A stretch of 64,000 nucleotides of DNA from Chiloscyllium plagiosum (taxonomy: Eukaryota), in NCBI RefSeq assembly GCF_004010195.1, contig NC_057749.1:15309726-15373725 (forward strand), written 5' to 3'. A program made the position numbers and the translations under genes. Under the pieces are notes generated by a model. It worked only from the letters and a program-made list of their open reading frames with translations, made no database searches and had not been told where the DNA came from. This document shows positions 6,085 through 46,882 of this stretch, in pieces (the first letter of the stretch is position 1; each line of letters begins with the position of its first letter).

Positions 6085-6885
6085 TAGGATGGTCTCAGGG
6101 CTCTCTGCTTCTTCCTGAACCGTCCCCTTCAGTCACCATCCTCCTTGTTCCAGTCTTATTCCGGTGTCCATTCACAACTCTTTCTCCAATATATTGATGA
6201 CATCATTGGTACTGCTTCCCTCTCTCATCCAGAATTGGAAATATTTATCTATTTTGCTTCCAATTTCCACTCCACTCTCACCTTCACATGGTGCATCTCT
6301 GATTCCTCCATTTCCTGCCTCAACATTTCTGTTTCCATTTCTGGGGATAACCTGGCCATCAATATCCACTATAAACCCACTGATTCCCACAGTTACCTTG
6401 ACCACACATCCTAATAGGAGAAAGTGAGGACTGCAGATGTTGGAGACCAGAGCTGAAAAATGTGTTGCTGGAAAAACGCAGCAGGTCAGGCAGCATCCAA
6501 GGAGCAGGAGAATTGACGTTTCGGGCATAAGCCCTCCTAATACCCTGTTTCACGTAAAGACTCTAATCCATTCTCCCAGTTCCTCCGTCTCAACTGTTCT
6601 GATGATGCCAACTTCAACAAGAGGTCCTCCAAAATGTCTACCTTCTTCCTCAACCAAGGATTCCCCAGCGTAGTAGTTGACAGGACTCTCAATGGGGTCC
6701 GACCCATCTTCCGCACTTCAGCCCTCTCTTCCCACCCACAACAGTGATAGGGTCCCCTTTGTCCTCACCTACCATCCCACCTGTATCCACATCCAGAGGA
6801 TCATTAGCTGCCATTTCCACTACCTCCAGTAGGATGCCATCACCAGACACATATTCCCCTCCCATTTCAGCCTTCTTCAAAGACT
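6085..6885 (+). mobile_element. Penelope-like retroelement reverse transcriptase remnant (interrupted)
   Basis: ORF 6145..6414 LFLQYIDDIIG...FTW.IS...HYKPTDSHSYLD has the YIDD catalytic motif and a Penelope-type thumb motif; interrupted by an insertion at 6417-6534. Confidence 0.75.
6417..6534 (-). mobile_element. Short Penelope-derived element (family P2), hammerhead truncated
   Basis: TSD tcctaata at 6409-6416 and 6535-6542; body gctggaaaa..gcagcaggtcaggcagcatcc shared with the other P2 copies. Confidence 0.75.
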
Positions 6886-7134
6886 GTTCTTGTTTGGTAA
6901 GGATTCAAAGGTATGGGAGGGGGCAGGAGAATGAATTTCAGAAATATATCAGCCATGATTGAATAGCAGAACAGATTTTGTTGCCTGAATTCCCTGATTT
7001 TTTTTCCTATATCTTATGGTCTCAATTTAGTTTGATATCAAAATCTTCTTTAATAATGTTGTGAAGCAATTTGGGACATTTTGATACACCAAATGCTTGA
7101 GATGAATGCAATTTGCTATAGCTTTTCTTCATGG

Positions 7135-7410
7135 GCATTTATTGCATATTTGTAATTGCCCAGAGGCGAGCTAAGAGTCAACCACATTTCTGTTTGTCTT
7201 GCATCACATGTAGCCCAGACAAGGTGAAAAACATTAGTGAGATTGATGGGTTTTCTCAATAATTGACATTGAATTCGTGGTCATCATTTGACTCTTAACT
7301 TTAGATTTGAATTCAAATGTCAACATCTGTAATGGTGGAATTCAGACCCAGATCCCCACATTACCTGTGTCTGTGGATTAATAATCTAGTCATCAAATCA
7401 TTGGACCACT
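7135..7410 (-). mobile_element. Old tRNA-derived SINE (same family as 21590, 36685, 39125, 40715, 42515)
   Basis: Shared blocks aattgcccagag...aagagtcaaccacat...acattagtga...gtggtcatcatt...gtggaattc. Confidence 0.55.
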
Positions 7411-7884
7411 GCAGATACAAGCAGTCCCCGGGTTACAAACAGGTCCCCTTCTGGAGACTATTTGCAAATCAATTTGTACACATGTTGGAACACAACACAG
7501 GACAATATAAATTCCACAGAAAATGTTCCTATAATCAGATATTTAAAATTACACACCCCATTTTGGAATTTGGAGGACAAACCTTTGCAAATTAGACACT
7601 CGTAAATTAGGGACCTGCTTCTATGGAGTTAGGCCACAGAGCAGCAAATAGTAGAACAGCACTGAGGGACTGAATGGCCTACTCCTGTTCCAACATTTCT
7701 GAGTAAGCTAACCAACAGGTTGAGAGGGTGCGATGATATTTCCAGTGAGTTCAGACACCTTCAGAAGAGAACCAGGAGTGAGGCAGGCACACACTTTAAA
7801 TCCAAAGCTCATCGACATCAGGTCCAGGAGCCTTTTATCCATGAGCAACGCCACTCCACCCGGGAGGTCCCCCTCAGTGAATCC

Positions 7885-43335: not shown

Positions 43336-44872
43336 TCCTTTAAAATAAATCCTGGACTAACTTCAGCTATTTTAAGAACAATTCTGCCTACTGAATAATT
43401 TCCTGGTCCCAATTCCCAGTGGCCTTTGTTAAATTCCATATCTTTGCTAAACGAGATTATCTCGATGGGGATTCCACAGTTGGCCCCATTGTATGTGGTT
43501 TAGGGAGGATTAAAACATTGGGGTTTCCTGACCATTTCTGAGTGCTGAGTTTCTCTGGAATCTGGGGGGAGAACACCCATTCAGACAACATACCATTAAT
43601 GTTGAATTGTAATTCAATGGACTGTCTATGTCTTACCGCTAAAGCCAATAGGAAATTCAGGCGCAATGTCTTTATGCAGAGACTGCTGGGAATGTGGAAC
43701 CAACCATATGAATAGTTGAGATGGGTAATCTAGATGAATTTAACAAGAAAGCTAGATCAGTCCAGAGAAAAGGTATAGAAGAATATGCTGATGGAGTTAA
43801 ATGAGAGCGAGTGAAGGAGCCTTGAGTGGAGCAGAAACATTAGCACAGAGAAGTTAACCTAAATACAGTAGCTTCTTCCTGTGTTATAGGTTCTATGTAC
43901 TCTCTACTTACATTAACACCTGAAAGATCAAACTGTACTCTGTAGATAGTTGGTGAAGCATAAATTCTGGCATGGGCCAGTTGGGCTGAATGGCCTGTTT
44001 CTTTGTTATTAAATTCAATGTAATGCTTCCAGTACTGGAAAGAAAACTAAAGGGAGATGGATAAAAAATAATTCAGGATAAATGTCAATGTCAAAGTATT
44101 GTTGTTCCCACTGCTACAGTTATCCTATAAATGCTGCATCAAGTGTTTTTCTTGGAATGAGTTTCTAGTGATTTCATGTTCCACTCTGGCAAATGGGTCA
44201 ACTGTTGCACTGAGCTGTGCCAGCTCTTAGCAAACTGTTCCATTCTGACTCCATGTTAAAAACACTCGAGCATTGTTTCAGAAAGGGCAGTTTGTGCTCA
44301 GTGCCTCTTTCTCTCCAAGCCTCGCTGACATCCTGCTCGCCTGCAGCATATCAATCGAGTCACTTCTCACCAACTGGATCACTGCAGTTTTACAAGTTCC
44401 AGGAATCTTTGAGTAATCTGATATTCCTTAACTCAGCCAACGCTATTAGTATGTCAACTGAAGGCAGGCTGTAGAAGGGAAAATGACATTCCTATGCCAA
44501 GAGTTCAGGGGTGGTGGTGAAAATCAGAATTAGACACTCTTTCTTTGAAGGGACTGATGAATCATCTGTAAAGGGGCCTGAAGAATCTGCATTTTTGCTG
44601 GAAATTATGGATTTGAATATTGTACAAGTTACTGTATGAAGTTTGATGCTTGTTTAGTGGAACAGTATTATACAGTAGTATCCAGTTTTATACTGGATTG
44701 TCCATCGGGGAGACTCCGATACCATCAAACCTTGGGCGGGTCTTATGTGAGGTGCACGTGTCCTCAACCTTTCCCAATGGTCACACAATGATTGGAGACC
44801 TTCTGATTACCCTATCTGGAATAAAAATGTAAACAAATGTGTCATACAATTGAGATTAAGTGTTTTTTTCAG

Positions 44873-44940
44873 GGCCTTGTTAGAAGGAGAACACGTCAAG
44901 CGTCACAGGATACCACAGCATTTGCGAAACCTCAGACAAG
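44873..44940 (+). CDS. SYNM: Synemin exon 3 (end of rod)
   Basis: tttttttcag|G GCC TTG TTA GAA GGA GAA completes the IF termination motif TYRALLEGE; 68 nt; donor AAG|GTAAAA, phase 1. Confidence 0.92.
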
Positions 44941-45758
44941 GTAAAACTATTTTAAAAGGGATGTATTTCTTTGGATCACTCACACTCCTTGGTATTTAAC
45001 CATGAACTATGTACAAAATTGCTGTAAAGTATTCTTAACACTATTCATATTGATGGATGTGACCCGCAACTTCTTCTGACTGCAGGTCCTACTTTCTGAA
45101 ATCTATTGGCTGATTTGTTTAAGAGTGGCATTATGTAGTTTTGGCGAAGTGGTCTAAGTTTTGCATCCTAATCTATATGAGAGTAGTGAATGTGTGATTG
45201 AACTCAAGGGCTCAATCAGAAAAAGAGATTTGATGGAAGAGTCAGCCATCTGAAACATTACCTCTATTTTTCACTCTACAGATCCAGCTTGATCTGCTGA
45301 ATATTTCCAGAGTTCTCTGCTTACATCAGAGAAAAGTCCACTGTTGCTAATATTTGAAAGTACAGATGCAATCCTGTAGATGCATCAACGAGGTGCTAGT
45401 GATAGATGGGGGCTATCTCTTCCAAGGAAGCCCCAATGAACCACAGGGAGTGGTGAGGTCAATAGCAGACCTTCCCCTGAGATAAAACCCCACACAGCGA
45501 GAGCTGCCAGCCAACTGGAGACAGGCCAGCCTGTGCTCAGCAGCGCCCCCAAGGATGCTGTGACTTCTGGCAGAACAGCACCCCTTAAGTCGATATTCAC
45601 AATACACCCAGGATTAAGGCCAATGAAAGAATCATAGGGTACGGTCCCCGTGGTCAAATTCCTGACCAACATTCAGATCTTCAATCTGGTACAGATTGCC
45701 TTTGATGTAGGCTCCATCCTTCCTCCCTACCCCAAGATGACAGGCTACCCATAGGGTA

Positions 45759-46882
45759 CTGGATTAGTGGTGCTGGAAGAGCACAGCAGTTCAGGCAGCA
45801 TCCAAGGAGCTTCAATATTGACGTTTCGGGCAAAAACCCTTCATCAGGAATAAAGGCAGTGAGCCTGAAGCGTGGAGAGATAAGCTAGAGGAGGGTGGGG
45901 GTGGGGAGAAAGTAGCATAGAGTATAATGGGTGCGTGGAGGAGGGGATGAAGGTGATAGGTCAGGGAGGAGAGGGTGGAGTGGATAGGTGGAAAAGGAGN
46001 NNNNNNNNNNNNNNNNNNNNNNNNNNNNNNNNNNNNNNNNNNNNNNNNNNNNNNNNNNNNNNNNNNNNNNNNNNNNNNNNNNNNNNNNNNNNNNNNNNNN
46101 NNNNNNNNNNNNNNNNNNNNNNNNNNNNNNNNNNNNNNNNNNNNNNNNNNNNNNNNNNNNNNNNNNNNNNNNNNNNNNNNNNNNNNNNNNNNNNNNNNNN
46201 NNNNNNNNNNNNNNNNNNNNNNNNNNNNNNNNNNNNNNNNNNNNNNNNNNNNNNNNNNNNNNNNNNNNNNNNNNNNNNNNNNNNNNNNNNNNNNNNNNNN
46301 NNNNNNNNNNNNNNNNNNNNNNNNNNNNNNNNNNNNNNNNNNNNNNNNNNNNNNNNNNNNNNNNNNNNNNNNNNNNNNNNNNNNNNNNNNNNNNNNNNNN
46401 NNNNNNNNNNNNNNNNNNNNNNNNNNNNNNNNNNNNNNNNNNNNNNNNNNNNNNNNNNNNNNNNNNNNNNNNNNNNNNNNNNNNNNNNNNNNNNNNNNNN
46501 NNNNNNNNNNNNNNNNNNNNNNNNNNNNNNNNNNNNNNNNNNNNNNNNNNNNNNNNNNNNNNNNNNNNNNNNNNNNNNNNNNNNNNNNNNNNNNNNNNNN
46601 NNNNNNNNNNNNNNNNNNNNNNNNNNNNNNNNNNNNNNNNNNNNNNNNNNNNNNNNNNNNNNNNNNNNNNNNNNNNNNNNNNNNNNNNNNNNNNNNNNNN
46701 NNNNNNNNNNNNNNNNNNNNNNNNNNNNNNNNNNNNNNNNNNNNNNNNNNNNNNNNNNNNNNNATGAAGGGCTTTTGCCCGAAACGTCGATTTCGAAGCT
46801 CCTCGGATGCTGCCTGAATTGCTGTGCTCTTCCAGCACCACTGATCCAGAATCTGGTTTCCAGCATCTGCAGTCATTGTTTT
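45759..46882. mobile_element. Longer P2-variant Penelope element spanning the assembly gap
   Basis: Inverted termini on both sides of the gap; 13-bp TSD tacccatagggta at 45746-45758 and 46883-46895. Confidence 0.75.
46000..46763. other. Assembly gap (N run)
   Basis: 764 consecutive N. Confidence 1.

Follow-up and report, generated by a model that had tools for sequence, protein, structure and literature searches.

The closest described counterparts of the P2 repeats analysed here are the minimal hammerhead ribozymes (min-HHRs) that occur within pseudo-LTRs belonging to Penelope-type elements (PLEs). The available part of their description (PMC4209133) gives as hallmarks an extra base between A9 and position 10.1, a G10.1-C11.1 pair and a palindrome, and P2 shares with the min-HHRs a type I fold, the conserved core, the extra base at A9/10.1, G10.1-C11.1 and a palindromic 15.2-16.2 region. 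In both cases there are several sequence families per genome and most motifs are solitary, which that source regards as "probably related to truncated PLEs". P2 differs in its stems, with 4 pairs in helix II compared to 7-8 in the Schistosoma families, and 3 pairs of 4 in helix I compared to 4-5 bp in the same study and 2 bp in D. virilis. Its copy density is also far above the 4,000-9,000 motifs reported there for coelacanth and Xenopus, and sharks are not named among the min-HHR hosts in that part of the paper.

EN+ PLEs, according to the available portions of two reports (PMC3846280; PMC8557442), have a tail of 30-40 bp at one end only. Like P2, they have a head-to-head inverted arm that is shorter by the tail (32-41 nt in P2), TSDs of 7-14 bp, strong 5' truncation and an assembly gap at a long inverted copy. 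Unlike them, P2 has been cut down to the terminus in nearly every copy; 5' ends peak sharply just before the ribozyme, the window shows no partial tandem, and 3' ends fall into three classes instead of two, one copy alone accounting for the third. In the Anolis Poseidon element PAc, reverse transcription begins 111-118 nt beyond the helix II start, according to the part of the study available (PMC11167929). PAc resembles P2 in that the ribozyme precedes the main site of reverse-transcription initiation by ~120 nt, that the tail comes from several internal initiation sites and both strands undergo nicking and extension (both probably so in P2 as well), and that no RNA-seq ends occur at the cut site, which in P2 is obscured by private changes in one copy, c11. 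The PAc ORF starts at helix II, whereas no start codon in a shared frame was conserved across the P2 subfamilies. Animal non-LTR retrozymes, as presented in the available part of a preprint (bioRxiv 10.64898/2026.07.22.740005), are like P2 non-coding, hammerhead-bearing and PLE-related, with many dispersed monomers, but they are by definition head-to-tail tandems whose units each bear a ribozyme, while P2 copies in the window (the whole 64-kb stretch of bamboo-shark DNA that was analysed) are single or head-to-head and do not run from cut to cut.

P2 represents the ribozyme-bearing ends of a Penelope-type element in a shark, which is an already described kind, and the sole puzzle of its copies is that many begin just before the ribozyme and not at its cut site. 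The eleven insertions that had been predicted to share a body are real. Sequence comparison across the window found this body at 11 of the 11 listed positions, and the full core-to-palindrome pattern gave five matches at ≤1 mismatch, for an expectation of 0.00 in 100 shuffles. One position was corrected, as c2 begins at 11112 and not at 11100. Together the insertions comprise 17 arms and ~3% of the window. A profile search of the window detected no additional full P2 member; what it did add was one weak 60-nt match (22021-22081) and an older relative at 43114-43322 (c12), a head-to-head copy of a related family that was absent from the earlier list and has five pairs in helix II and four in helix I.

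The original prediction described P2 as one relatively young family at about one copy per 6 kb, with several copies nested in older repeats. The common body was confirmed, but the copies split into 3-4 subfamilies with pairwise identities of 73-96%. The density is indeed 11 per 64 kb, but every insertion lies within 6.4-46.9 kb. Youth applies relative to the host repeats only, the arms within one insertion differing by 0-14%. Nesting was found for c1, in the decayed reverse-transcriptase ORF of a PLE from a family other than P2 (~6076-6883), for c4, in a SINE-like head, and for c9, in a LINE-like repeat with flanks that run collinear to 29055-29224, but c3 abuts a SINE-like repeat and does not lie within it.

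Three of the five single-arm insertions are full stubs: c3 (12452-12584, plus strand), with an intact hammerhead at 12459-12486 and an exact 7-bp TSD; c4 (19396-19539, minus strand), which is P2b-type, has a 14-bp TSD with one mismatch and carries G10.1-U11.1 in helix II through CpG decay; and c6 (28251-28381, minus strand), a P2b1 copy with an intact hammerhead (C3 at 28375) and a 12-bp TSD. The P2a1 copy c1 (6417-6534, minus strand) begins at helix II, is missing the 5' half of the core and has an 8-bp TSD, and c2 (11112-11172, plus strand) is a short arm that begins at C17 beside the predicted cut, belongs to the short 3' end class (nt 89) and has a doubtful TSD.

The other 6 of the 11 insertions are head-to-head inverted pairs, a feature that the prediction did not mention; arm ends are given below in nt after C3. 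The inverted arm of c5 (25321-25491; 12-bp TSD with one mismatch) lies at 25322-25412 on the minus strand, contains an intact hammerhead and ends at nt 87, and its forward arm, 25411-25489 on the plus strand, ends at nt 126. Neither arm of c7 (32533-32729; no TSD found) has a full core; they lie at 32533-32652 (minus, ending at nt 126) and 32652-32729 (plus, ending at nt 93). The c8 pair (33441-33615; 14-bp TSD) is without a ribozyme core, and its plus arm has a further 35-39 nt (33581-33619) past the usual 3' end. The arms of c9 (35462-35636; 14-bp TSD) are identical (55/55), the minus one ending 2 nt beyond the predicted cut. In c10 (41603-41839; 9-bp TSD) a spacer of ~14 nt separates the most diverged arms of the set (86%), and the core is damaged, with A14 changed to G. 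The longest pair, c11 (45759-46885; 10-13 bp TSD), consists of a minus arm (45759-45999), a 764-N assembly gap and a plus arm (46764-46885).

TSD scores of ≥8 were obtained for 10 of the 11 insertions and for 3% of 600 random intervals, and convincing TSDs of 7-14 bp were found in nine (c1, c3, c4, c5, c6, c8, c9, c10 and c11), the number that had been predicted. No A-run indicative of a poly(A) tail was found at P2 3' junctions in the window. The main 3' end lies 117-119 nt beyond the start of helix II. Five of the six pairs combine an arm that stops at nt 85-95 with one that stops at nt 125-127, a difference of 32-41 nt, and the c8 arms end at nt 89 and nt 165, 76 nt apart. The inversion junctions overlap by 1-4 nt, and the non-CpG differences between the arms of c5, c10 and c11 fall at positions for which other copies show both letters. 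The six pairs resemble the long hairpins of a fold-back DNA transposon or MITE, and the only Rfam matches were to microRNA-precursor hairpins, below threshold and on inverted copies. Such an origin is nevertheless extremely improbable, given that 5 of the 11 insertions have no inverted arm, that arm ends are unequal, that the centre is different in every copy and that TSD length varies from 7 to 14; the single-arm, TSD-bounded c3, c4 and c6 already contradict it.

A complete core from C3 to A15 was present in 6 of the 11 insertions: it is intact in c3, c5, c6 and c11, has the wobble pair in c4 and the A14 change in c10. The motif includes the core positions C3-A9, G12-A15.1, U16.1 and H17, the extra base after A9, G10.1-C11.1 and the helix III palindrome; Rfam gave no hammerhead match on P2 copies at E≤1. 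Helix I is weak, as had been proposed (two pairs, a U-U and one pair), and the palindrome is ACGU in P2 and AGCU in P1. The further claim that the helix II loop varies while the stem and core are kept was not borne out: within copies the loop had 1/44 changes versus 4/189 in non-CpG stem, core and inserted-A positions (Fisher p=1), and loop variation comes down to one subfamily-diagnostic base and one private change. Because helix II is invariant between the P2 subfamilies, there is no covariation to count. Subfamily-diagnostic differences numbered 0/24 in the ribozyme versus 22/93 in the body (p=0.0035), but versus the equally conserved proximal body (5/43) the difference in conservation was not significant (p=0.10). 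In c6 the predicted energy of the hammerhead is -5.3 kcal/mol, compared to -11.4 kcal/mol for a competing monomer hairpin in which the core is paired to the palindrome region. When dimers were folded, the dimeric hammerhead was not the minimum-energy state, a result that speaks neither for nor against that form, and whole stubs folded no better than shuffles at significance (z -1.38 for c6, 0.19 for c3).

The hammerhead in the minus arm of c11 lies at 45820-45851 (minus strand), with C3 at 45847 and C17 at 45820; position 45851 is an A four nt before C3. Upstream of it are 148 nt of pyrimidine-rich sequence (45852-45999, minus strand), presumed to be the 3' untranslated part of a longer parent. 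Public DNA runs from two related species contain this sequence in very high abundance: contig depth in run X3 sums to 0.5-1.3 million, as compared to 2.05 million on the first bin of the ribozyme and 3.9 on unique flank. Since c11 runs at least 148 nt upstream into sequence of such abundance, P2 copies look like stubs of a longer parent and not like a separate mini-family. Of the suggestion that P2 was a non-autonomous or extremely truncated Penelope, the truncated PLE is retained, as indicated by the inverted arm, the tail, the variable TSD, the minimal hammerhead and the lack of poly(A), but the separate non-autonomous family is not. Most likely, the copies are dead-on-arrival stubs of the 3' terminus, that is, a pseudo-LTR with a minimal hammerhead plus a tail, from several subfamilies of an abundant EN+ PLE. 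The basis for this explanation is the anatomy, the TSDs, the fixed 3' ends, the inverted arms, the longer form and the conservation of the ribozyme between subfamilies, all observed in these data.

It is unlikely that P2 is instead a discrete, SINE-like mini-element of ~130 nt with its own transcribed masters, mobilised in trans by a PLE. Non-autonomous PLE derivatives have been described (Chlamys; retrozymes), the TSD-bounded single-arm copies c3, c4 and c6 have nearly identical two ends, and the drop in depth across 45851 is steeper in RNA (333 to 98 in X21; 62,550 to 3,460 in X18) than in DNA (2.05 to 1.23 million in X3). However, the RNA drop is also expected if P2a, which has different upstream sequence, dominates the read-through RNA, and the loose ends in X21 are P2a-type. 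Moreover, c11 joins the P2 unit to upstream sequence that is itself very abundant, c8 carries downstream sequence, and the 5' ends of arms outside the main class are scattered from +1 to +46. Rfam found no Pol III SINE head (tRNA, 5S or 7SL) on any copy, though it likewise failed to detect the window's SINE-like repeats; the P2 unit starts directly with the ribozyme.

The main class of 5' ends, 3-5 nt before C3, accounts for 5 of the 16 window arms. Three of the 16 (c2, the c8 minus arm and the c9 minus arm) end no more than ~4 nt from the predicted cut, so that the template may on occasion have been cleaved RNA. These three ends would fit a retrozyme-type cycle in which GUC self-cleavage frees linear or circular unit RNAs that are then reverse-transcribed and inserted, and the available part of the retrozyme preprint proposes that animal retrozymes derive from PLE pseudo-LTRs (bioRxiv 10.64898/2026.07.22.740005). 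As a general account of P2 this is very improbable: no head-to-tail tandem or direct pseudo-LTRs were visible among the 11 insertions (the c11 gap could conceal one), none of the 17 arms is circularly permuted, 3' ends are located 58-138 nt beyond the cut rather than at it, and sequence upstream of the cut is kept at most 5' ends.

Loose ends pile up behind 45851 in both DNA runs, in 152 X3 contigs and 131 X14 contigs, and the loose letters agree at 0.34. This pile-up is partly an artefact, as subfamilies with different upstream sequence also break there and the consensus of the loose ends begins alike in both runs. Among 1,393 reads of X21, one poly(A) single-cell run, there was no pile-up of RNA starts or ends, and these reads are uninformative at the cut site, where the c11 reference carries private changes (45811-45819). 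The initiator consensus is YYANWYY, and the modal-end A (45851 in c11) sits in what we take to be an initiator-like context. Cap read-through would give an extra 5' G, and a G directly precedes the modal-end A in c3 and c6, each preceded by two extra bases, TG, and in the 13 extra bases with which c4 stutters the first bases of the element. We tentatively suggest, while considering it doubtful, that the stubs are complete run-off copies and not truncations: capped parent RNA would begin at an initiator 4 nt ahead of the hammerhead, the reverse transcriptase would often use the internal start site close to that 5' end, and each event would add a ~130-nt unit.

There is a considerable chance, though short of even, that the stub ends reflect random 5' truncation with no transcription start, by stalling of the reverse transcriptase at or just past the ribozyme structure or by microhomology joining at the AT-rich edge. 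This estimate is conditional on PLE identity, and the account differs from the preferred explanation only on the cause of the stub ends. Four arms stop inside the first 8 core nt, beside the helix II hairpin, which together with the junction overlaps, the competing monomer hairpin and the lack of an RNA start at the site in X21 favors truncation. On the other hand, different subfamilies have their modal end at one base, 4 nt past the last stable helix, and the initiator-like context and the preceding G also argue against truncation.

PLE proteins with reverse transcriptase and GIY-YIG domains are present in sharks and rays, and one such family is decayed in the window. Protein searches with the P2 unit frames returned only exonised copies and one repetitive chance match (in turn no match, two isoforms of one host gene model, and one host gene model plus the chance match) and linked no ORF to P2. 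A protein match at 38002-38200 belongs to the LINE part of a chimeric gene model and not to a PLE. A metagenome scan with a 28-mer of the unit and a viral DNA scan for the unit each gave 0 matches. Short matches in prokaryote genomes (3) and metagenomes (48) were attributed to chance because none aligns beyond 34 nt. In the literature searched, five short motifs of the unit were absent, the sections available held no evidently related work on a shark hammerhead retrotransposon (one "shark" was the name of a ribozyme only), and those on the question of the Penelope inverted twin-priming template looked unrelated. The searched files of the supplements of PMC8557442 and PMC4209133 contained no shark term.

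If P2 copies are dead-on-arrival PLE termini, published PLE work suggests how they would arise. The GIY-YIG endonuclease of the parent would nick both strands with a stagger of 7-14 nt and the reverse transcriptase would prime at the nick. Copying would begin inside the RNA at a few sites ~38 nt apart (nt 85-95, 125-127 and 165 after C3), and these internal start sites would give rise to the tail and the shorter inverted arm. We further propose that many stubs are ~130 nt because copying runs off the 5' end of the RNA just before the ribozyme, a point that is probably a transcription start in the pseudo-LTR. Selection would keep the ribozyme in master lineages; the P2 ribozyme would at most be active when dimeric or when aided by a protein, and the usual end of the element would not be set by its cleavage.

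As an entry in a catalogue P2 is ordinary, hammerhead-bearing PLE termini having already been described. Translated pieces of P2 were found in two predicted bamboo-shark proteins, which indicates that the family feeds host gene models. What PLE hammerheads do and how head-to-head PLE insertions originate are open questions, and at about one insertion per 6 kb in the window both lend themselves to end counts and arm phasing that need no bench experiments. If the stubs are run-off copies, hundreds of thousands of them would record the transcription start with an occasional cap-derived G, the in vivo ratio of uncut to cut ribozyme (ends at -4 versus GUC), and, in arm differences such as those of c5, c10 and c11, priming on two strands from two RNAs.

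The eleven insertions of the second hammerhead family, P2 (c1-c11), were all found again when the window was searched by BLAST with slices of three P2 copies, and they comprise 17 arms, an arm being one copy of the P2 unit. The feature is real. A profile made from the recovered copies found no further full member in the window; its only extra matches were an older relative at 43114-43322 (c12) and a weak one at 22021-22081. The insertions account for 1,905 called bases, or 3.0% of the window. A pattern running from core base C3 to the palindrome matched five times in the window at one mismatch or fewer, with 0.00 matches expected by chance. 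Target site duplications (TSDs) were scored from the fixed 3' end, and 10 of the 11 insertions scored at least 8, compared to 3% of 600 random intervals. Convincing TSDs of 7-14 bp were found for nine insertions, in agreement with the number in the original prediction; that of c2 was doubtful, since it overlaps both ends, and none was found for c7 in the search anchored on the 3' end. Two observations concern the flanks themselves. The target duplication of c11 (45746-45758) is an imperfect palindrome and has 3 nt in common with the element's 3' end, and the left flanks of c2 (11074-11111) and c7 (32442-32479) are one older repeat, 82% identical over 38 nt, which is also present at 18027-18133.

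The strongest evidence that P2 is a Penelope-like element (PLE) came from its architecture, which the original prediction of a Penelope origin had not used. The unit is about 130 nt long in the ribozyme sense, the hammerhead occupying its 5' edge. Counting from C3, its 3' ends fell into three classes. Nine arms ended at nt 125-127, six inverted arms and c2 at nt 85-95, and one arm of c8 at nt 165. Six of the 11 insertions were head-to-head pairs, that is, two inverted arms with their 3' ends outward, and the outer ends of the two arms differed by 32-41 nt in five pairs and by 76 nt in c8. This resembles the PLE organization described by Craig et al. (PMC8557442), with strong 5' truncation, an adjoining inverted copy that is itself truncated, and a tail of 30-40 bp confined to one end. 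Arkhipova et al. (PMC3846280) describe a rotifer PLE copy with an inverted pseudo-LTR 37 bp shorter and a TSD of 9 bp. Frangieh et al. (PMC11167929) demonstrated nicking and extension of both strands by the protein of the Anolis PLE. They placed the start of reverse transcription at two internal sites, one of which lies 111-118 nt beyond where helix II begins, and equated the tail with the stretch separating these sites; the main P2 end lies 117-119 nt beyond the beginning of its own helix II. On these grounds the PLE reading of P2 is well supported.

P2 had been proposed to be a non-autonomous or extremely truncated Penelope family. The inverted arm of c11 (45759-46885) extends 148 nt past the ribozyme, through pyrimidine-rich sequence, and then meets an assembly gap. 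Four public runs were aligned to 45600-45999, and contig depths were summed, which is not a measure of copy number. In DNA run X3 the summed depth was 3.9 over the unique flank and 0.5-1.3 million over the c11 upstream sequence; the first ribozyme bin reached 2.05 million and the body at most 4.1 million. The corresponding values in X14, a DNA run from a second organism, were 13-31, 0.7-2.9 million, 5.5 million, and 9.2 million. Clearly, both organisms harbour the longer form in great abundance. On the opposite, downstream side, c8 adds 35-39 nt. Protein searches and DNA scans found no open reading frame (ORF) joined to the P2 upstream or downstream sequence, so that membership in the PLEs rests on architecture.

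The original prediction that several copies are nested in other repeats holds for c1, c4, and c9. Insertion c1 splits a PLE reverse-transcriptase ORF (6076-6883) that is decayed and belongs to another family. This ORF is 61-80% identical to predicted shark and ray proteins, some of them from a eukaryote set, with two traced to whale shark; its family has reverse transcriptase and GIY-YIG domains with sub-threshold Pfam scores. Insertion c4 interrupts a SINE-like head, separating its A-box-like part from its B-box-like part, and both flanks of c9 match a different copy of a LINE-like repeat in collinear order, but c3 only abuts a SINE-like repeat. An intermediate-filament head and rod exon (31187-32245) and a large open frame of 924 codons (48035-50809) are probably exons of a single gene, which we take to be synemin-like, and the five insertions between them, c7-c11, would then be intronic. 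Translated pieces of P2 were also present in two predicted Chiloscyllium plagiosum genes, in a FUBP3-like C-terminus and in a PDZ protein (P0019, P0020, and P0022), reflecting either exonisation or errors in the gene models. Together with the matches of the ORF that hosts c1, these pieces point to a shark, probably a carpet shark, as the source of the window. Elsewhere in the window are a tRNA gene (8501-8573; Rfam 65.5 bits) with a TATA-like stretch upstream and a T-run downstream, a CpG-rich stretch near it (about 7850-8400), and a minisatellite (about 3250-5150) with units of about 24-25 nt and long open frames in several phases.

The 5' end was readable in 16 arms. Five ended 3-5 nt before C3, four in the first 8 nt of the core, three close to the predicted cut (about 4 nt away or less), and three elsewhere downstream (+15, +39, and +46), while one ran upstream. 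The A at 45851, four nt before C3 in c11, had loose ends behind it in 152 and 131 contigs of two DNA runs, with an agreement of 0.34. This site was among the best six in each DNA run, taken from a loose-end list with 677 further rows, and was the only upstream-side site among those listed. Part of this signal stems from subfamilies with different upstream sequence, because the loose-end consensus starts alike in both runs. The initiator consensus is YYANWYY, and an initiator-like context surrounds the A at 45851 in both the c11 upstream sequence and the loose-end consensus. Read-through of a cap yields an extra G; c3 and c6 have an extra TG ahead of the A four nt before C3, and a stutter in c4 repeats TG. 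For the D. virilis Penelope element, the pseudo-LTR is described as containing an internal promoter that lacks a TATA box (PMC2377424). The only raw RNA run, X21, was poly(A) single-cell data, and among the 1,393 of its reads that were aligned, in both orientations, no site was seen at which many RNA molecules begin or end. This counts against run-off at the transcription start as the cause of the 5' ends, though run-off was still slightly preferred over stalling.

Comparison of the arms within inverted insertions hinted that each may derive from two RNAs. The arms of c9 were identical. Only private changes separated those of c7, and in c8 a difference at one CpG site came in addition to private changes. 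The hint comes from c5 (one site), c10 (three, including an indel), and c11 (two), in which the arms differed at non-CpG sites with both letters present in other copies; one of the c11 sites is variable within the family (36% in X3). Differences of this kind could also have arisen by recurrent mutation or gene conversion.

The P2 hammerhead shares several features that Cervera and De la Pena (PMC4209133) list for the minimal hammerheads of PLEs: the core, one additional base following A9, G10.1-C11.1 pairing, and the palindrome. Most such motifs are described there as solitary and probably derived from truncated PLEs. The hammerheads of the other family, P1 (447, 9397, and 56690), likewise have an extra A after A9, and the copy at 56690 seems to have its own tail of about 30 nt after the end that it shares with the other two. 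The whole P2 core was kept in only six of the 11 insertions (four intact, one with G-U at the base of helix II, and one damaged). The monomer is predicted to favour a competing hairpin (-11.4 kcal/mol, versus -5.3 for the hammerhead fold), in agreement with published reports of weak cleavage by such PLE ribozymes, seen only in dimers or in the presence of protein.

P2 contained three to four subfamilies (c1, c2, c3, c7, and c9; c5, c8, and c10; c6 and c11; c4). The argument that the helix II loop varies while stem and core are kept fails at the level of copies: within copies, 1 of 44 loop cells had changed and 4 of 189 non-CpG cells of the stem, core, and inserted A (p=1), with 3 of 12 CpG stem cells altered. 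These within-copy changes are neutral decay. Diagnostic differences between the two main subfamily groups fell at 0 of 24 ribozyme positions, 1 of 4 in the loop, and 22 of 93 in the body (p=0.0035), yet the contrast weakened to p=0.10 when the ribozyme was compared only with the proximal body (5 of 43). This pattern makes selection in the master lineages likely, though not confined to the ribozyme. The bodies of c3 and c6 share a predicted fold, a long-range helix with an inner hairpin, which was no better than that of shuffled sequences and is a candidate protein-binding element. The older head-to-head relative c12, with five pairs in helix II, four in helix I, and ends near nt 95, is useful for covariation across families.
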